From Octopus vulgaris (Eukaryota), in the NCBI GenBank assembly GCA_951406725.2, contig OX597835.1:8246001-8310000 (forward strand): DNA of 64,000 nt, in the 5' to 3' direction. The translations under genes were made by a program, and so were the position numbers. A model generated the notes under the pieces. It searched no databases. It was not told where the DNA came from and saw only the letters and a program-made list of their open reading frames with translations. Positions 2,521 to 62,058 of this stretch are shown in pieces. Positions within the stretch are counted from its first letter, which is position 1. Every line of letters starts with the position of its first letter.

Positions 2521-3366
2521 AATATACTATCCATAGAAAGATTTTCCTACTTAGTTGATCAAATGTTATCATTGTTTTAGTAATTACTTCATTTATCCCT
2601 CTCTTAAAGTGTTTCACCCTCCTGATCTTAGTATTTATAAGAGCCTTTCTAAAAGTAGCCCCTCTAATTAAGTACTCCCAAGAAACTACAATATCAGGTA
2701 TGGATTAACACACAAACTTTAAAGACCTATAATATACCTCTTAGTATATAACTAGTATATAGTTAGCATGTCCTATAACATCAATATTCCTTTAGTTAAT
2801 ACCAGGTATCATTCTTTATAGATATAAGCTAAATAAGTAAATAAACAATTTTTGGCTTAAATACTTGAATTATTATACATTTTTTATAAGTCTCCTCTAT
2901 TGATGTTACTAAGGTGTACATATACTTCAGTATGGTCTTTAATGATTAAGCTATTTTATTCCGTTTCTATGGAGTTCTACCCTACCAGATCCTTTTAATA
3001 CCTTTTAATTGTCTTTATGAAACAAACCTAATTTTCGTACCCCTATATATTCATACTTAGCTTATATAAAACTATATCAGTATCTTCACAACTTAAAATA
3101 AATTGCTTAGATTATAATTTAATTAATATATAAATTAAACATGTTCTTTCGCCTCAGTGCTCCTTTATTCAATACCAGTAAATGCCAATTGATCAATCTC
3201 CATAGATACCATCTAAGAAGTTAATATTTAAGTATATAATATGTATAAATATTAAACTATTTCTATCCTTGTTGTTGCTTATTTTGATTTAATTCACCTT
3301 ATTTTGAAACTGTAGTCTATAGAGAAATGGTTAAATTAGCTCTGTTTATAAAGTTACTGTACAGGT

Positions 3367-14603: not shown

Positions 14604-15180
14604 ACAAAGACCCAATGGAAAAGATGCTGGCCATCAAAGTTGAAGCAACTCGAATTTGATAAAGAGAAACGAATACATTAATAAAGAGCGCCCTCTCTCA
14701 GCCCATAGCCATTCAGAAGCTTTCACTTTCTTCTTTCCACGGACCTTCTTTCTCTATCTAAAACTCGATCTCTTTCATACCAATATTCATCCATTCTTGA
14801 TTACGTCAGTCATTCTTAAAAATGTTTGCAAACCACTTCAGCAATATTTCTCGTTTTCTTTTATATATTTTTTTGTCTTCCTCATTCTTGCAGAGAATTT
14901 ATGCTTCGTTTTCTCTGACCTGTTATATTACGCACTCGACCAGAAGTTCCTTTTCCTGTGTTCTATGCCTCTTCTTCAGAAAAATGCTTAAAATCCGTTC
15001 AATAATGTTCCGTTAAATCAAGGGTTTACTGTATGTACGTATGTGTGTGCATTTGTGTATGTGTGTGTGTGTGTCTGTGCGTGTCTCTGAGAAGGAGTTG
15101 AACATTACATCATTAAAGAACTCATTCATAACAACGAGGCTAAACGAAAGAAAATTCTACTCAAATATATATATATATAT

Positions 15181-15390
15181 GTGACTTCGTGAGCACCGCC
15201 AGCAATTTTTTTTCCTCTGTCTTCCCTTCTCGGGATCTTTCCTTCTCCTTTGTTTCCGACGAAGAGCTCCGCTCGAAACGTTAAACCCTCCTTCTTCCCT
15301 TCTTTCCTGAGCGTCCAATAATACTTTATTTGTTCCACATCCTCGCGTTGCTGTGTGTTTTTTTTTGTGTTTTCTTGTTTGGATTAACTA
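15181..15390 (+). mobile_element. (TA)n-embedded mini-element family H1
   Basis: Homologous to 36987-37190, 42920-43039, 46724-46817 and 59793-60010; all flanked by (TA)n. Confidence 0.85.
15252..15286 (+). ncRNA. Minimal hammerhead, U4C core (family H1)
   Basis: GTTT|CCGACGA|A|GAGC-tcc-GCTC|GAAA|CG|TT|AAAC. Confidence 0.7.
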
Positions 15391-20635: not shown

Positions 20636-20800
20636 AAATAGAAAGATGAATAATCTTGTAGTAGATTAATCAAAAGTTTAACCGATACCTTAGTAGCAAA
20701 AATCACAGCAGTAAACAGTTTCGCCATGGGCTCTTAGGAGCATAGTTCGATTTGTTTTTGCTCCGCCTCTGTTCTGTTTTTGTTTTTCCAACGGATTTCC

Positions 20801-20894
20801 TATTTTCTTCCTGAAGAGAAAGACACAATATGGTCCCATTATTCAATCGGAATTTGGTAATTTGTGCCTTTCGAAACACGTGTAGAATGAAATA
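20801..20894 (+). ncRNA. Type I hammerhead ribozyme, canonical core
   Basis: tattttcttc|CTGAAGA|GAAAGACACAA...TTGTGCCTTTC|GAAA|CACGTG|TA|gaatgaaata; GUA site after 20884; palindromic stem III ACACGTGT; in TA-flanked insert 20634-20950. Confidence 0.85.
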
Positions 20895-20948
20895 AAACGA
20901 TTTCTGTTCAATCTGCGTTCAGCTCCATTTCTTCAATTCACCAATAAT

Positions 20949-20995
<47 letters not shown>

Positions 20996-23982: not shown

Positions 23983-24038
23983 AATTTGTCAAAATATTTT
24001 CGTCGCTTTGAGACCGCGACCTGTTCACTGACAAAATT
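23983..24038 (-). ncRNA. Minimal hammerhead, G3-C8 swapped core
   Basis: Minus: AATTTTGTCA|GTGAACA|G|GTCGC-ggtctcaaa-GCGAC|GAAA|ATAT|TT|TGACAAATT; 7-bp stem I, 5-bp stem II, palindromic AATATT. Confidence 0.72.
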
Positions 24039-24911
24039 CCGTGCATCACGGAATTTTGTCAATGAACAGGTCGCGGTCTGACGTGTCGGAATATACTGGC
24101 TGTTTTAATTAAGAAATTCGCATCGTCAAACATTGGATTGTAAAAAGAGTATATAAAAACAGGCGTTATTAATTCATATCTTAATATTTTCCAGTCGCAC
24201 ATATTAGAAATATTAATTACCATATCCTATCGTAAATATGCTAAACATTTCAAAACATACTTTTCACTGATATTATGCATTTCAACAATTATAAATATGT
24301 TTATATTTTCTCCGATAAAACCAATATCGGATTAGAAATAAACAATAGCGGTTACACGTAATTTCTTAATATGTTGATCAATACTAATTATAGAAACAGT
24401 TGATGCACCAATATAAATATTCCGGCAACAATGTAATTCACGAACTGAAAGAAGACAATAGAATGTCCAGTTAGGTGTGAGCCGTGGCTCAAATTGAAAG
24501 TACAAAAATTAATATATTATTTCATTACAGGATATAGGTTAATTTATTGCAACAGAAATAGAACGAAGCAACATGAAAATCTTTGGTAAAATTAACAATT
24601 AGCTCAGAAAATTAATCAGTCTACACCTGAACATGAACAATAGGAAAACAATCAGTTGGCTGAAAAATAGGCACACTAGGAACGATTCTAAGTTTACTCT
24701 GTTTTTTATTGTTTATATTTTGTGTACACAAATTCTACCTAAAGCAACACAACGGATGTTTCAGATACAGAAGTATTGCGGGTATATACATACATACATA
24801 CATACATACATACATACATACATACATACATACATACATACATACATACATTCATACATACATACATACGTACATACATGCATGCATGTATATATATATA
24901 TATATATACAT

Positions 24912-25320
24912 ACAGTAAAAGCAATTAAGATTCAAGTGAGTTCTATTGAATTCACATGAATGCGGTACTTAACTTAGATGCACCAGAAATCTATATGGTA
25001 TTAACCATAAGATAAGGCGGGGTGATTATAAACAAGTAAAAAGCAACAAAAATGGATCAATATTTCGGTACAATTGTTTCGTACGAAGACCAGCTTTATT
25101 AAGACTGCAAATATTGCAGCAAATACAAGTGACCCGTACTCATCAGCCGAAAAAACATCTGAGTTCTCCAAACATCTAAGGGAATGAGGCTAAACTCCTG
25201 AAACATCAGGGATGGTTCTACAAAAATCAGATTTAGATAATAAATGGACTTCCGAAGTTCTTTAATGTTGCACAGTCATATAACAGGTTTTAAAAAAGTA
25301 TTTTAAAAAACCTCTCTATA
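24912..25320 (-). mobile_element. (TA)n-embedded mini-element family H3 (Penelope pLTR-like)
   Basis: Shares agattcaagtga...ggtactta...agatgcaccagaa...ggtgattata with 26060-26158, 40354-40490 and 43078-43195. Confidence 0.75.
25063..25152 (-). ncRNA. Type I hammerhead ribozyme, canonical core
   Basis: Minus: TTTCGG|CTGATGA|GTACG...CGTAC|GAAA|CAATTG|TA|CCGAAA; perfect stems, GUA cleavage between 25069 and 25068. Confidence 0.9.
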
Positions 25321-25329
25321 TATATATAC

Positions 25330-25407
<78 letters not shown>

Positions 25408-25710
25408 GTATATATATCCATTGTAGAAAAACATAAATCCGGAGACGAAACACTCTGAGATGTAGATCAGTTAATATTATAATGGGGGAGGCCGGTTTAT
25501 GGGGTTACACAGGATGATCCGTCTATAACGGTTTTGACTTTATGACGTATCCTCAGACCACAAACCTGTTGGCCTAAGACTTCATCAAAATGGTTTGATG
25601 ATACGCCATAAAACCAAACCCCTTATGGATGAGAAACTGAGAGTAACCCCATAAACCGGCCTCCCCATTATAAAATATATATTTGTATATATATATATAT
25701 ATATATATAT

Positions 25711-26158
25711 GATCAAAATAAGCAACAAGAATATCCAGAGGTTTCACGCTACTCCATTCAATTGAACAATGCAAATATTACATCAATTTAAAATGTAGAG
25801 CAATCTTCAGCTGCATAAAAATATAGAATTTTGTTAAATTGGAAGGACATATTTATACAAATGAGTCCTTCCAATTTAACCAAATTCTATATTTTTATAC
25901 AATGAGTCCTTCGAATTTACCTAAATTCTATATCTTTATGCAGCTGAAGATTGCTCTACATTTTAAATTGATGTAATGTTTGCATTGTTCAATTAAATGG
26001 ACTCGCATGAAACGATCGTACTGCATTACCTCTTGATATCCTTGTTGTTTATTTTGATTAGAATCACCTTATTTTGAATTATATGGATAATACGATACTA
26101 AATTCTGGTGCCTTTAACTTAAGTACCATATTCATCTTAATCTAAATTTCACTGAACT
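25711..26158 (+). mobile_element. Family H3 element arranged as a long fold-back palindrome
   Basis: Arms at about 25712-25848 and 25905-26059 are reverse complements; (TA)n on both sides. Confidence 0.85.
25938..26026 (+). ncRNA. Type I hammerhead ribozyme, canonical core
   Basis: ATGCAG|CTGAAGA|TTGC...GCAT|GAAA|CGATCG|TA|CTGCAT; 6-bp stem I, palindromic ACGATCGT. Confidence 0.85.
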
Positions 26159-26246
26159 TATATATATATATATATGAGTGTGTGTGTGTGTATGTGTGCA
26201 TGTGTGTGCGTGTGGTATGTGCGCGCGAACACATACACACACAAGA

Positions 26247-30426: not shown

Positions 30427-30560
30427 AATAATTGAATGAATTATCTTGTTATGGATAATTCGGTTAACCGATACCTGGGTAGCAAATTCACATCAGACAA
30501 GACACGTTTGAAGTTACGTGCTTAATAAAGGAATTTTGTTAGCTCAACTCCATTCTTTCA
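30425..30560. mobile_element. (TA)n-embedded mini-element fragment related to 20634-20950
   Basis: Shared ttaaccgatacct..gtagcaaa and ctccatt.cttca ends. Confidence 0.55.
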
Positions 30561-35905: not shown

Positions 35906-36986
35906 ACTTATACACACACACACGCACACCCAAATATAGGGTCCTCGATGCGCGGCAAATTTGCCCTGAGTCCACCGTTGGGGGTTTCCTGCTGCGTTTG
36001 AGTGGGGCTTGCCTCGAAAATACCTTGCACACGGGAGCGGCCAAGCGTCAGGGAGCACCGAGTTCGATCGACCTCTCCTTGTGGACCCTTGATATCCTGT
36101 TGCTTATTCTGATACATACATATGTAATATAAACATATATTTATAGATGTGTATATAAATATATATGTGGCTGTGTGTATGTTTACGGGGGATATACATA
36201 AAGATAGAAATATAGAGAGATACAGAAAGAAACCAGAGAGACTATAAAATGATTATAAGAAGGTGACACCAGATCCTTTCATGGTAATATGATCTCAGAG
36301 AGTATTTATGATCACGTGCTTAAGAAAGTTGTTTTGCTATTCTGTGGTTTAAAGTAGAATCTCTCTGCATGCATTTTGCCACAGCATCGGGTTGTCCATA
36401 TGATTCACCACTGAAATTGAATTGACGAAACTCGTCAAATCCTCAGGAAGTGACAGTAAATGTTTTTCGGTGATAGTTTTAGTCCCTCACCGGTTTCAAC
36501 TCTACAACATCATCACACTCATCGGAATCCTTTCATTTATAATCATTCTGACCTGGTCATCCTTTAGACAATATATGACTTGTGGGTTATTTCCCGATTT
36601 TAGTTTCAAAACCATTCTCTCAGACCCACCAAAGGACATCATGGAAGCTGAATATTCTGTTCTGAATAAACGATATTAACTATATAATTAAACTATATAA
36701 TTAAACTATATAATTAAAGTGTCTATATTTCTGCATCAGAAGCAACAAGCTTTATTTACCAACCTGCCTTTAATATTTCATTTATAAGATTTAAAGTTCA
36801 AAGGCATTTTACTCTAAACCTCAATTTACATTAACCGGGTTAATTAGGATGTATTTCACAGAATTATTGATATGGAATAAGCGGAGGCTAAGCTGATGTA
36901 GGTTTATTTTTATTTACATTTTCAAATAATCTAGTGGATTGAATTTCATGACAGGAACTTATAATAAATAAATAAATAAATATATG

Positions 36987-37184
36987 ACCCCGTGTGTACC
37001 ATTGGCGATTTTTTCCCTCTGTCTTCCCTTCTCTGGATCTTTCCTTCTCCTATGTTTCCGACGAAGAGCTCCGCTCGAAACGTTAAACCCTCCTTCTTTC
37101 CTTCTTTCCTGAGCGCCCAATAATACTATATTTGTTCCACGTCCTCGCGTTGTTGTGTTTTTTTGTGCTTTCTTGTTTGGATTA

Positions 37185-37190
<6 letters not shown>
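36987..37190 (+). mobile_element. Mini-element family H1 with hammerhead at 37054-37088
   Basis: GTTT|CCGACGA|A|GAGCtccGCTC|GAAA|CG|TT|AAAC, identical to the 15252 copy. Confidence 0.85.
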
Positions 37191-40353: not shown

Positions 40354-40356
<3 letters not shown>

Positions 40357-40523
40357 TTCAGCCAAAAATTAGATTCAAATGAATATGGTACTTAGTTTAG
40401 ATGCACCAGAATTTTGTATGGTGTTATACATAGAAATCCGTGGGGTGATTATAATCAAAATAAGTAACAAGAATGATCCGTAATTTGGTACGAGTACCAA
40501 ATTCTTGTTGTCATTCTTGCTTA
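40354..40523 (-). mobile_element. Family H3 fragment with terminal fold-back
   Basis: aatttggtac (40482-40491) / gtaccaaatt (40494-40503); (TA)n flanks. Confidence 0.75.
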
Positions 40524-42919: not shown

Positions 42920-43036
42920 AGTTAATCCAAACAAGATAACAAAAAGACAACAACGCAAGGATGTGGAACAAAAAAAGGATTATTGGACGCTCAGGAAAGA
43001 AGGGAAGAAGGAAGGTTTGACGTTTCGAGCGGAGCT

Positions 43037-43039
<3 letters not shown>
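42920..43039 (-). mobile_element. Family H1 fragment truncated within the hammerhead
   Basis: Ends ...cgtttcgagcggagctctt then (TA)n. Confidence 0.8.
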
Positions 43040-43077
<38 letters not shown>

Positions 43078-43080
<3 letters not shown>

Positions 43081-43258
43081 TTCAGCAAAATTTAGATTCA
43101 AGTGAATATGGTACTTAAGTCAGACGCACCAGAATTTTGTATGGTATTATCCATATAAATGATTATAATCAAAATAAGCAACAAGTATATCTTCATTAGT
43201 AGCATGAAACGATCGTACCAAATTACCGAAGATATACTTGTTGCTCATTTTGATTATA
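43078..43258. mobile_element. Family H3 fragment with fold-back; loop holds the HHR 3' half
   Basis: Arms 43164-43194 / 43228-43258; GAAA-CGATCG-TA-CCAAATT at 43206-43224. Confidence 0.78.
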
Positions 43259-46440: not shown

Positions 46441-46723
46441 GGTTATAAAATGATCATCTGATCATCTTATAAGTTTTCTTTTGATTTAACATTGAACCCG
46501 TGGACATTACAAAGATTTATATTGTAAATGAGTTTTTTGAAAAATTTCAGATCGTCAGGCTTGTTGGATTTAGAAACATCATTAGAGCAAGCAACAGAAA
46601 AGGATTAATAAGGAAATTTGAAAAGTGTTTAACGAGCATTATCCACTGTGAGCGTATTCATGCACACACAGACGCACACGCTGAGACATACGCACTCACA
46701 CACGCGTATATATATATATATAT

Positions 46724-46814
46724 AGTTAATCCAAACAAGAAAACACAAAAAAACATAGCAACGCGAGGACGTGGAACAAATAAAGTATTATTGGACGCTC
46801 TGGAAAGAAGGGAA

Positions 46815-46817
<3 letters not shown>
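46724..46817 (-). mobile_element. Family H1 fragment lacking the hammerhead
   Basis: gttaatccaaacaag...ttggacgctc; (TA)n flanks. Confidence 0.8.
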
Positions 46818-47538: not shown

Positions 47539-47577
<39 letters not shown>

Positions 47578-47581
<4 letters not shown>

Positions 47582-47807
47582 AGATAAGAAAATGGAGAAA
47601 CACATCTAAATCAAATATCAATTACCAGATAATACTCAATCACATAAGTTATTGAACCACCACATAAGAGACTGTAGGGTTAAATATAAAAAGCAGAACA
47701 AATCAGTGTACAGTCTCTTATGTGGTGGTTCAATAAAGTATGTGATTGAGTATTATCTGGTAATTGATATTTGATTTAGATGTGTTTCTCCATTTTCTTA
47801 TCTTGTA
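47578..47807. repeat. 99-bp inverted repeat with 32-nt loop in a (TA)n-flanked insert (47578-47978)
   Basis: Arms 47578-47676 / 47709-47807, about 2 mismatches. Confidence 0.92.
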
Positions 47808-47974
47808 TTAGTAATTTATGGTAAATCATTTTACCTTTGCCCAAATAATACAGTAAATGAATTGATTGCTGCGCAATCATTAACATTTATGTATTAACTT
47901 TGTTGGGTACTTCACTAGCAGTATATTGGATATACTTTATCCCACAGAGGGTTGCATTTACAACCCCTATCTCA

Positions 47975-48027
<53 letters not shown>

Positions 48028-48139: not shown

Positions 48140-48355
48140 TGCGTATGTCTGTGTGTGTGTGCTTGTTCCCCACCCCCGCTTGACAGTTGGTGGTCGCATG
48201 TTTATGCCCCGCAACTTATCGGTTCGACCAAATATACCGATAAAATAAGTATAAGTCTTTTAAAAATATCAGTACTAGGGTAGATTTGTTTGACTAAACC
48301 CTTCGAATCGAAACAGTGCCTCTGTAATAACTGAAACAAGTAAAAGTGTTAAAGA
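48140..48355 (+). mobile_element. Old SINE A 3' portion
   Basis: Diverged; ends actgaaacaagtaaaag. Confidence 0.75.
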
Positions 48356-49767
48356 GAATCAAAAGTTGGGAGTGTCCCTCTCCGAAGAGCCCCTACACAG
48401 AACACGCCTGCTAAGTTTTCGCTCCTCAGTTCTTCGTTCGACCCAGAACTATAATACAAAAAAAAAATTCAATTCCTTAATATGGTGCCTTGTAGTAGGA
48501 TCAATCACTAAAGTATAGAATTACGAACAGAGATTCTTTACCACGCACTCATTGAAAATGAAGATGAGGATTTCAAAATAAAACACAATCCATCCTTTAC
48601 CCCACAAGAATTAATACATCTTCGAATCCATTAACTGCAAAATCCTCAATTACATTTTCTATTGCTCTGCTTTCAAATGCTCATTAGTAGCGACATCTAA
48701 AGTGTTCTTGAACAAATTATCTTCATTTATCGCTGTTTTTCTCCTTTGTCTCCCACTCTGATTAGTCGTTTCTACTTTCCTTTATTTCCACCTTCCCAAC
48801 TAAACCTAGTTTAGCATGGAGGAGTCTAGAAAGCTATTAGATTTCCTCAGAAAACAAAACTGAATATTGATTTCTTTGAGAGAAGGATTTTTCTCCATCC
48901 CTCACATCCTCTAATTCTTCCATTCTACTTCTTTGTTGTTTTCCTTTCATTTTTCTTTTTATTTCCTCTTCACGCGTTGATTACGCGACCTATTATTAAA
49001 TTTGAAAGGTTTAAATATCTTGATGTTGCATACAGACCTTAAAGTCTCAAGAACAATGCTCCAACGGAATATTTAGTAATTCTATTTCATAAGAAAGACA
49101 TCTCATCTTCGTTGGCCTTTGGAGTAATCATTGCACAATAATAAACCGAATTTACTAAACCATCTGCGCCAATAGAAAATTCTCCTCGATTCAAAAGCTT
49201 TTATTCTGGTCTTCAAAGAAACACAACGTCGTCTATTTTTAAATTGACTTAAATTAGAAGCTTTTAGACGTTGGATCCAGGGACAGGAAATCCGTTTAGG
49301 TTTAAATAAATAGATCGGCCGAACAACCCTCTTAACAACGGAAAGGTCTCTTGAAATATCAAACCATTTATAGAAATATAAATTTACTTGAAGTAGATGG
49401 CGAACAATTTCAATTGTCGGGTTAATAATAACATTTAATCAGGAAAGATGTGGAGCAGACAGCAAAACCCAGGAATAAAATACATCTAAGTATTTTAGGT
49501 TGTTCTTGTACGTCCCTAGTTCAATTTCAGTTCAGAGAATAAACTTTACTTTCCTTACTTGTAAAATTGTTGTAGTATTACACTGTAGAAATGACGATCC
49601 ATCGAGTTCGAATCACACTAAAATTACATTCCACTGACAAAAGATTGATACATTGCGATTGAAGAAAAGAAGCGTTTCATCAAAGGGTTGCTCGAGTAAA
49701 GTTCATTTAGCGATGGCCCATCAAAATCGACAGCAGTGATAACAATCAACTCAGAACTGGGGTTTAA

Positions 49768-49988: not shown

Positions 49989-50734
49989 TAAAAGTGCTTT
50001 GCAATGATGGAGGGCTTCGTGTATGTGGAGGACGGAGAGTTCATAATTTTGACACAACTGTAACTCATTGAGCTGCAGTAAAGAGTACGGAATGTAAGAA
50101 AGATCAGACATCTGTCAACAGCGAATAGTTTTCATGAATCTTTGCTTGATAAATAGTGTCCGAATGTTTAAAAAAAATGTGTGATAAGGCTAAAAGCATA
50201 CACTTCATATTACCGTTTAGCATTCAACAAGCTCAAGTTACAGCTTGTTTCCCTGGAACCACTTGTTAATGGACGTAATTAACACTTTTAACTCTCTGCC
50301 TTTTCTCTTATTACATATTTAAATGCAATTTATTAAAAGTTGATATCAGTTCCGTGTATTAATTTCAGTACATTGTCTATAGTTGTTTATGGGTCTAACT
50401 CTATCTTCTACAAACATAACTGTACCTTTCATTTATTGCTGTTTTTGTACTGCTTAAAGGCACGTCTTTTCCTGCCAAGCTTGCTGTTGAAACCATGTTT
50501 GTGTTCTCCCAGTCAACAGCCTTATCATTACTGGTACTTTAAACTCTTCGGCTGCATATTTGTGTGAATAAAATCGTTTTTCTTTGGAATAGAAAAAAAG
50601 TCTATTTTTATTTCTTCTTTTGCTGGTGTCAGAAATTTAGGTTAAATCAGTGTTTCTCAAAAGGTTTAAACAGTAAGTTTGGCAGGAAAGAAACGTACTT
50701 TTAAGCAGTACAAAAACAGCAAAAAACGGAAGGT

Positions 50735-54652: not shown

Positions 54653-54859
54653 AACGGGAAGCTTTATGAAAATAAACAAAAGACGAAGGCAGGTGGAAAA
54701 CAAACGAACAATTGTATTAGTATGGCGCTCAGGAAATATAAATAAAACAAGTCTTTAACGTTTCGAGCCTACGCTCTTCAACAGAAAGATACACAGAGAG
54801 AAAAAACACAGAAAGAAGGAGAGAAAAAAATGCGTGCAGTAGCTAACGAATCAACATGG

Positions 54860-59760: not shown

Positions 59761-59792
<32 letters not shown>

Positions 59793-59793
<1 letters not shown>

Positions 59794-60007
59794 GTTAATC
59801 CAAACAAGAAAACAAAAAAAAAAAACACAGAAATGCGAGGACGTGGAACAATTAAAGTATTATTTGACGCTCAGGAAAGAAGGGAAGGAGGGTTTAACGT
59901 TTCGAGCGGAGCTCTTCGTCGGAAACAAAGGAGAAGGAAAGATCCCGAGAAGGAAGACAGAGGAAAAAAAATTTTTTGCTGGTGGTGCTCAAGAGATCAC
60001 ATGTTGA

Positions 60008-60919: not shown

Positions 60920-61125
60920 GTCTCTCTGTTTATCACTCCACCATCGCTTGACGACCTATGCTAATGTGTTTACATACCCGTAACTTAACGGCTCGGCCAA
61001 AGAGACCGATAAAATAAGTACGAGGCTTACAAAGAATAAGTCCTGGAATTGATTTGTTCCACTAAAGGCGGTGCTTTAGTATGAACCCAGTCAAATGACT
61101 GAAACAATTAAAAGATTAAAAGATT
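60920..61125 (+). mobile_element. SINE A 3' portion, diverged
   Basis: Similarity to other copies. Confidence 0.82.
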
Positions 61126-61650
61126 AATTAACCAATTAACCAATCGATTACTCGCCCAAAGGTGTCTGTAATCAATCTACCACTAGGTCTTTCGCAGTCC
61201 TTCCAGAGCAATCACCATTTCGTGAATAATGTGTATGCATATTCCTAATGTAACATACAAACGCCTGCGCTACAAAGCTTTTTAGAAGGAAAATATTTGT
61301 TGATAGGATAAATATTTCTGAAAATATGACCAAAATGTTTTGAGTAATCTTACTTTTAGTTATACTAAAAAGAAACAAGAAATTAAGCCAGAAACACACA
61401 CACACAGAATCTTCTTGTATACTGCAGCTCTTAACAACAAACTAATATCAAACATCATATCAGAAAACTTATCCGAGATGTGGTCGAAAAATTTAAATTC
61501 CTCCCAGTGAAGAATATGAATCAATCTCATCAACATTCCCTTAATTCTTCGATGCTGCAAAGATGGTAACTGTCCAAATACCCGATTGCTCACCCCTTTC
61601 TTTTTAACCTCCGCCGCCTTGACCTTCCAAATCGTACGCAGATTCCATGA

Positions 61651-62058
61651 TTTTACTCTTTTACTCTTTTACTTGTTTCAGTCATTTGACTGCGGCCATG
61701 CTGGAGCACCGCCTTTAATCGAGCAACTCGACCCCGGGACTTATTCTTTTTGTAAGCCCAGTACCTATTCTATCAGTCTCTTTTGCCGAACCGCTAAGTA
61801 ACGGGGACATAAACACACCAGCATCGGTTGTCAAGCAATGCTAGGGGGACAAACACACTCACACAAACACACACACGCATATATATATATATACATATAT
61901 ACGACGGGCTTCTTTCAGTTTCCGTCTACCAAATCCACTCACAAGGCTTTGGTCGGCCCGAGGCTATAGTAGAAGACACTTGCCCAAGGTGCCACGCAGT
62001 GGGACTGAACCCAGAACCATGTGGTTGGTAAACAAGCTACTTACCACACAGCCACTCT
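61651..62058 (-). mobile_element. SINE family A
   Basis: Near full-length copy. Confidence 0.92.

Follow-up and report, generated by a model that had tools for sequence, protein, structure and literature searches.

The palindrome at positions 25711 to 26158 of the 64-kb window (the whole stretch of octopus DNA that was analyzed) raises the question of how two mirrored arms came to differ at a ribozyme, one carrying a hammerhead with its cleavage site and the other a copy without it. Aligning the inverted arms, 25712-25853(-) and 25901-26058(+), gave 142 columns with 14 substitutions (7 of them transitions; 90.1% identity) and a sole gap of 16 nt, opposite right-arm positions 26012-26027. As RNA, the 350-nt palindrome had a predicted fold of -180.1 kcal/mol (z = -28.5), a stability that none of 100 shuffled sequences equaled, and on both measures the palindromic element described in an earlier note is real. 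The full 448-nt element is asymmetric, in that the tail at 26059-26158 (100 nt) has no mirror counterpart, and (TA)n lies at both of its ends. The features are collected in Table 1.

Table 1 Features of the palindromic element and of related or neighboring repeats in the window
Feature	Position	Strand	Details
(TA)n microsatellite	25684..25710	.	Left insertion boundary
Short inverted arm	25711..25853	-	Without tail; internal end point shared with short arm of the 43256 sister copy
Left-arm hammerhead remnant	25741..25816	-	5' strand of stem I, 25811-25816; first half of the core, 25804-25810; a long stem II; GAA
16-nt deletion junction	25742..25743	-	2-nt microhomology
Inversion center	25852..25859	.	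Near-perfect fold-back, loop of 4 nt
41-nt direct tandem duplication	25852..25939	+	2.1 copies; the "third copy" of the earlier note is the first unit, 25860-25900 in register
Long arm, mirrored portion	25901..26058	+	
Type I hammerhead	25938..26026	+	Stem I 25938-25943/26021-26026; core 25944-25950 and 26009-26012; stem III 26012-26019; predicted cut after 26020
One-sided 100-nt tail	26059..26158	+	3' end shared with sister copies whose ends lie at 43079 and 40355
(TA)n microsatellite	26159..26176	.	Right insertion boundary
Sister copy (unmirrored)	24946..25189	-	75% identical in 3' part; intact type I hammerhead 25063-25152
Sister palindrome, 40 kb	40355..40520	.	Long arm minus; inversion center within palindromic stem III; short arm rearranged; neither arm with core
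Sister palindrome, 43 kb	43079..43258	.	Short (plus) arm retains stem III, the cut site and the 3' strand of stem I; long (minus) arm without 22-nt segment; neither arm with first core half
Family fragments	3265-3301; 36090-36113		
Neighbor palindrome, different hammerhead family	25474..25676	.	Arms 25474-25560(-) and 25591-25676(+)

Inverted structures of Penelope-like elements (PLEs) are known to disturb assemblies (PMC8557442), and a fold-back generated during assembly or library preparation would account for a palindrome without any biology. Here an assembly artefact is unlikely, because the arms are 10% divergent, with an indel besides, and because end points are shared with sister copies, the mirror ending at a family-specific point that is common to another copy. 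Fold-back artefacts yield near-identical arms, which the 14 substitutions and the gap contradict, and we regard an artefact as the maker of this palindrome as scarcely conceivable. Gene conversion between the arms was considered and rejected, as the 43-nt identical run was not significant (P = 0.07).

The element is quite likely a non-coding, heavily 5'-truncated PLE insertion in (TA)n, consisting only of the 3' terminal repeat in head-to-head inverted arrangement. Since the coding parent was not found in the window, membership is judged from structure, by which the element probably belongs with the PLEs. A hammerhead lies in the terminal repeat near the 3' end, both here (25938-26026, 132 nt from the end of the element) and in the unmirrored sister (25063-25152), and a 5'-truncated inverted copy adjoins head to head at a palindromic junction, likewise in the 40-kb and 43-kb copies. 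The tail is one-sided with fixed ends, though at 100 nt it exceeds the 30-40 bp of described families, and the target is (TA)n at both ends in all three palindromes, microsatellite flanks that would hide any target-site duplication. In each of the three palindromic copies the long arm stops at one and the same base, beyond which lies (TA)n, while the internal end point of the short arm is shared by two of the three (this copy and 43 kb), the 40-kb short arm being rearranged there.

Each of these traits has a published counterpart. PLEs have been described with an inverted 5'-truncated copy beside the insertion, a tail on one end, and a (TA)n bias (PMC8557442); the tail has been explained as the gap between two internal reverse transcription start sites, with both target strands nicked and extended (PMC11167929). 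Palindromes at head-to-head PLE junctions have been read as self-priming, and many copies as disabled by microhomology deletions (PMC3846280), and hammerhead pairs have been reported on opposite strands 100-700 bp apart, together with evidence that dimerization is necessary for motifs whose helix III is short and palindromic (PMC4209133). For the present element, the parent PLE endonuclease would have nicked a (TA)n tract, reverse transcription would have started at two internal sites, giving products with and without the tail, and the cDNA ends would have been joined at the center by fold-back or palindromic annealing.

Coding sequence was sought both in the element and around it. The 448-nt copy holds no ORF, as expected if it is truncated. 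Among 269 ORFs of the window (stop-to-stop, with at least 45 unmasked residues and less than 35% masked, a set that short exons may escape), there was no Pfam match to a reverse transcriptase or GIY-YIG domain and no recognizable gene, so that no transcribed strand was assigned; two weak sub-cutoff matches (DUF2721 and YgjP-like) were treated as noise. A 58-aa frame upstream of the sister ribozyme, which may resemble a PLE C-terminus, returned one candidate and none at E ≤ 10 in a protein search that covered longer proteins only. In the tail (26084-26140) and in the sister tails, an ATG opens a frame of ~18 codons, with several inter-copy differences at third positions; this frame may be an upstream ORF or the beginning of the parent's ORF. 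Six family motifs had no match in the PLE consensus supplement of PMC8557442, where line wrapping can mask matches, and a degenerate tail motif had none in bacterial and archaeal genomes, as expected. No published account of this family was located in the literature searched, which covered few subscription papers.

Comparison with described systems placed the element in a known class, as a new family member with the modest variations of a long tail and a long stem II. EN+ PLEs (Penelope/Poseidon, Neptune, Nematis, and Hydra clades) share the inverted truncated copy, palindromic junction, one-sided tail, 3'-near hammerhead, (TA)n, and microhomology deletions (PMC8557442, PMC3846280, PMC11167929); the element differs from them in having no ORF and a tail of ~100 nt rather than the usual 30-40. 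Its stem II, with 58 nt separating the core halves, is long compared with the 7-8 bp helix II of PLE minimal hammerheads, and its ribozyme is distinct from that of Hydra-1_Obim (File S2 of PMC8557442). Non-LTR retrozymes are likewise non-coding, hammerhead-bearing, and probably PLE-derived (10.64898/2026.07.22.740005), but in these, units of 150-450 bp are repeated head to tail with their ribozymes on the same strand, whereas the element is a single inverted pair; a retrozyme was rejected because the sole tandem unit is 41 nt and without ribozyme. A MITE or foldback DNA transposon was also rejected, given the one-sided 100-nt tail and copies that vary at the center and not at the ends.

The third, short copy of the center (~25866-25896), which had been described as inverted and ascribed to repeated snap-back priming, proved to be an extra copy indeed, but one in direct plus-strand tandem (period 41) that is inverted only relative to the left arm. 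The three 41-mers differ pairwise by 4, 6, and 5 bases, and because they are near-equally diverged the duplication is of roughly the same age as the insertion. This equal divergence would also suit repeated snap-back, and self-priming has been proposed for PLEs (PMC3846280). A second snap-back, however, would have re-inverted the orientation, and there is no intervening inverted unit: the copies run minus, plus, plus, and a 7-nt near-repeat marks the boundaries of the units, which fits slippage. One fold-back and one slippage event, by reverse transcriptase or DNA polymerase, suffice for the third copy, which makes repeated snap-back improbable. A single fold-back in the making of the palindrome is plausible, and the 41-nt duplication may be reverse transcriptase slippage.

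The right-arm hammerhead has a 6-bp stem I, an intact core whose halves are 58 nt apart, a palindromic stem III, and GUA at 26018-26020, and its core agrees with the positions C3 U4 G5 A6 N7 G8 A9, G12 A13 A14 A15, and U16 H17 listed in PMC3088659. It was one of three strict-descriptor matches in the 64-kb window, compared with none in any of 5 shuffled windows, and one of five matches to a second descriptor, for which 20 shuffles gave 1 in total. Stems I and III are paired, but stem II is weak, with U.U at 10.1/11.1 and three of the first five pairs formed. No Rfam hammerhead reached its gathering score anywhere in the window, nor was there a hammerhead among the 29 Rfam matches at E ≤ 10 in 25400-26200, which were generic hairpins only; the long stem II probably defeats the Rfam hammerhead models. 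Thus, of the "full" ribozyme claimed for 25938-26026, the motif stands on its descriptor matches, and "full" does not, in view of the U.U, the 3/5 stem II pairs, and the Rfam result. We consider the motif hammerhead-derived, with doubtful activity as predicted from these stem II defects, though U10.1-U11.1 is found naturally in hammerheads and such variants can be active (PMC3088659, PMC7229834). A miRNA precursor was rejected (best Rfam miRNA score of 45 bits against a threshold of 100, from generic hairpin matches). Descriptor matches at 48767-48856(-) and 24501-24625(-) were dismissed as probable chance matches, with non-palindromic stem III and weak pairs; the relaxed descriptor gave 20 candidates, of which 5 were listed. 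In all four copies (26014-26034, 43210-43230, 40478-40494, and 25056-25076), the three bases that directly follow stem I could base-pair with the cleavage triplet (3-4 bp, 6-nt loop), possibly as a conserved inhibitory hairpin.

Folding of the transcripts indicated how the two arms would behave together. These figures are equilibrium secondary-structure estimates: the active fold of the right-arm ribozyme cost +73.2 kcal/mol in the full plus transcript compared with +5.1 alone, and in the minus transcript stem I and core of the left arm were paired at P = 1.0. Type I hammerheads of metazoans whose helix III is short and palindromic (PLE min-HHRs and axolotl HHR_Amex2) share the 6-bp stem I, the intact core, the 2-bp stem III with palindromic tetraloop, and the U.U at the base of stem II; HHR_Amex2, which has both the palindromic stem III loop and the U.U, shows 22% cleavage of the monomer in 1 h and much more efficient cleavage of the dimer (PMC7229834). 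Unlike those, the sole nearby partner in the element is antisense, so that no dimer would be possible and the motif would be sequestered. Because the arms pair into a long duplex and this ribozyme type normally requires a same-strand partner, the hairpin likely blocks both ribozymes in any read-through RNA, and neither is likely to cut today. Of the hammerheads in the window, the one best suited to an assay of activity is the unmirrored minus-strand hammerhead at 25063-25152(-), in a copy ~560 nt from the element, with predicted stems that are fully compensated (stem I 6/6, stem II 5/5 with G10.1-C11.1, a palindromic stem III, and a long stem II).

The asymmetry itself was verified: missing from the left arm, within the single 16-nt gap, are stem III, the GUA triplet, and the stem I 3' strand. 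This exact deletion is not a family-wide trait, as the segment is retained in the 43-kb short arm and in the 25-kb copy (24946-25189), and the 40-kb arms retain the triplet and the 3' strand of stem I. For this loss, the earlier note had raised, as a speculation, purifying selection against cleavage of a minus-strand transcript, by which the cut site on that strand would have been removed. In its favor, the three one-arm lesions among the palindromes of the window are all in minus-strand arms (after the first case, 2/2 has a chance of 0.25), and hammerhead repeats are depleted from Xenopus genic regions (10.64898/2026.07.22.740005). However, an intact left arm would be fully paired to the antisense right arm (P = 1.0) and so already silenced by the duplex, unless transcription starts inside the element, and only ~560 nt away the unmirrored hammerhead persists intact on the minus strand, where in the same read-through its active fold costs just +8.6 kcal/mol compared with +73 for a mirrored one. 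Intact-core hammerheads occur on both strands of the window (4 plus and 2 minus), the 43-kb lesion sits in a copy without a core, the plus arm of the neighbor palindrome is also broken (C3U), and the window yielded neither a gene nor a transcribed strand. Selection of this kind is therefore very doubtful.

Nor was the right arm spared. When the 14 arm differences were polarized, 6 were right-derived, 4 left-derived, and 4 without a call, with 5 of the 10 polarized calls depending on the duplicated 41-mer alone, which is not a true outgroup. The right-arm change at 26004 breaks a stem II pair, and substitutions were no more or less frequent inside the ribozyme than outside (5/74 versus 9/68, p = 0.26); both arms are decaying to a similar degree. 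Of the 143 possible placements of a random 16-nt deletion, 18 would hit the GUA and 61 an essential part; microhomology of at least 2 nt accompanies 27% of the 132 possible 16-nt deletions in the arm, and the tail of a sister copy carries an 11-nt deletion outside any ribozyme. Most likely, the left cut site was lost by a copying or repair error and not by selection. As to its timing, a later, unselected deletion of the microhomology type comes close to an even chance, and an unselected lesion made at integration, where the ribozyme interrupts copying, is possible.

This last reading can be carried further. A folded or self-cleaved hammerhead could interrupt reverse transcription, with the stalled cDNA end rejoined by microhomology or fold-back, so that one arm would lose its GAAA/stem III/cut-site segment at insertion, a tentative explanation that several breakpoints recommend. 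All 4 hammerhead-bearing palindromes in the window are broken within ~16 nt of the cut, a count that leaves aside the inverted repeats at 24011-24079, 47582-47803, 50425-50733, and 60942-61840, which gave no hammerhead match. In the element, the 16-nt deletion spans -9 to +7 relative to the cut, with 2-nt microhomology; in the 43-kb copy, the long arm lacks 22 nt from the same stem III boundary, with 3-nt microhomology, and because the first core half is absent from that copy, selection on catalysis is no explanation there; in the 40-kb copy, the inversion center lies inside stem III. In the neighbor palindrome, the GAAA/stem III of the left (minus) arm is replaced by a short inverted filler, with 9 mismatches in 12 positions over 25629-25640 versus 9 in 60 elsewhere (P = 0.003). 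Pure random decay fits poorly with four cut-site breaks out of four and three minus-strand one-arm lesions. Separately, the left arm of the neighbor palindrome runs ~55 nt further, and a GAAAC-type half motif lies near 25444-25466(+).

Against interruption of copying by the ribozyme stands, above all, that the pattern is post hoc with n = 4. The positional chance is 20/143 = 0.14 for this element and 17/61 = 0.28 for the neighbor, the 43-kb copy may be a plain 5' truncation with filler (the chance of an extra 2-nt match is 0.095), and the cut site is only ~35 nt from the short-arm end, so that short truncations land nearby regardless. In a minimal-hammerhead family of the window, only two of the five clear copies have their start 20 nt or less from the site, and a sixth, weak match starts at -29. 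In PMC11167929, uncut RNA was the main substrate in vitro, RNA-seq reads did not end at the site, and cleavage was not needed. Moreover, a cut in the RNA could not leave its mark on the short arm alone if that arm was copied from DNA by fold-back. We thus consider it rather unlikely, though worth stating, that PLE palindromes bear a recurrent hammerhead scar, for which the ribozyme would cut or block the template at integration and the arms would be independent cDNAs from two reverse transcription start sites. Clustering of breakpoints at PLE hammerheads was not found reported in the literature searched, of which subscription papers formed a small part.

Whatever the ribozyme does, asymmetry could also arise if a perfect palindrome in DNA were prone to mutation or selected against, since instability as a hairpin or cruciform is established behavior of long inverted repeats. 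Both the 41-nt extra unit and the 16-nt gap interrupt the hairpin, as such instability would favor, but a 98%-identical palindrome with 100-nt arms persists at 47577-47803, and instability gives no reason for lesions at the cut site; we consider it an unlikely cause.

As a single locus, the palindrome has little weight, being a dead copy of a known retroelement class whose inverted form, tail, and deletions are already published. What it offers is a reusable method, since a mirror insertion provides two same-age copies of one ribozyme and thus an arm-versus-arm comparison of lesions with an internal control. If breaks were concentrated at the cut site genome-wide, breakpoint maps would provide evidence from genomes for an in vivo role of PLE hammerheads in retrotransposition, a function that PMC8557442 calls unclear. 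If the locus is transcribed, its probable effect is as a double-stranded RNA substrate. Octopus has a high load of double-stranded RNA and A-to-I editing (PMC5625713), to which such palindromes could contribute: a survey of the window found 7 local inverted repeats in 64 kb, the 40-kb palindrome lying below its cutoff and having been found by separate comparison. Palindromic ADAR substrates (Xenopus Harbinger and lizard Penelope; PMC5625713) likewise form a self-folding duplex, ~140 bp in the element; Harbinger, unlike the element, is a DNA transposon.

The window is AT-rich and ~31% microsatellite (19,838 masked bases), and three other hammerhead families occur in it: one at 20805-20890(+), minimal motifs at 15250(+), 37052(+), and 59890(-), and the neighbor palindrome at 25474-25676. 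The first belongs to a (TA)n-flanked element at 20636-20950(+), whose type I hammerhead has 55 nt between core halves and a palindromic stem III, with a partial relative at 30436-30496. At 47577-47980, the 98%-identical palindrome with 100-nt arms has a ~170-nt one-sided extension in (TA)n, a similar layout with no hammerhead match, and both arms possibly, if speculatively, begin at a cut-site-like triplet. Further inverted repeats without a hammerhead lie at 24011-24079, 50425-50733, and 60942-61840, the last resembling two opposed copies of a common SINE-like repeat. The region 48300-49500, ~1.2 kb outside the microsatellites, contains broken protein-like frames that gave no Pfam match, and the weak hammerhead-like match 48767-48856(-). 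The minimal-hammerhead family, at 15180-15390(+), 37009-37187(+), 59792-60001(-), 42920-43039(-), and 46723-46815(-), with a weak match at 54706-54787(-), is young (87-93% identical), and its ribozyme has U4C, an additional base after A9, and a loopless stem III. Its final four bases before (TA)n are those of the family of the element.
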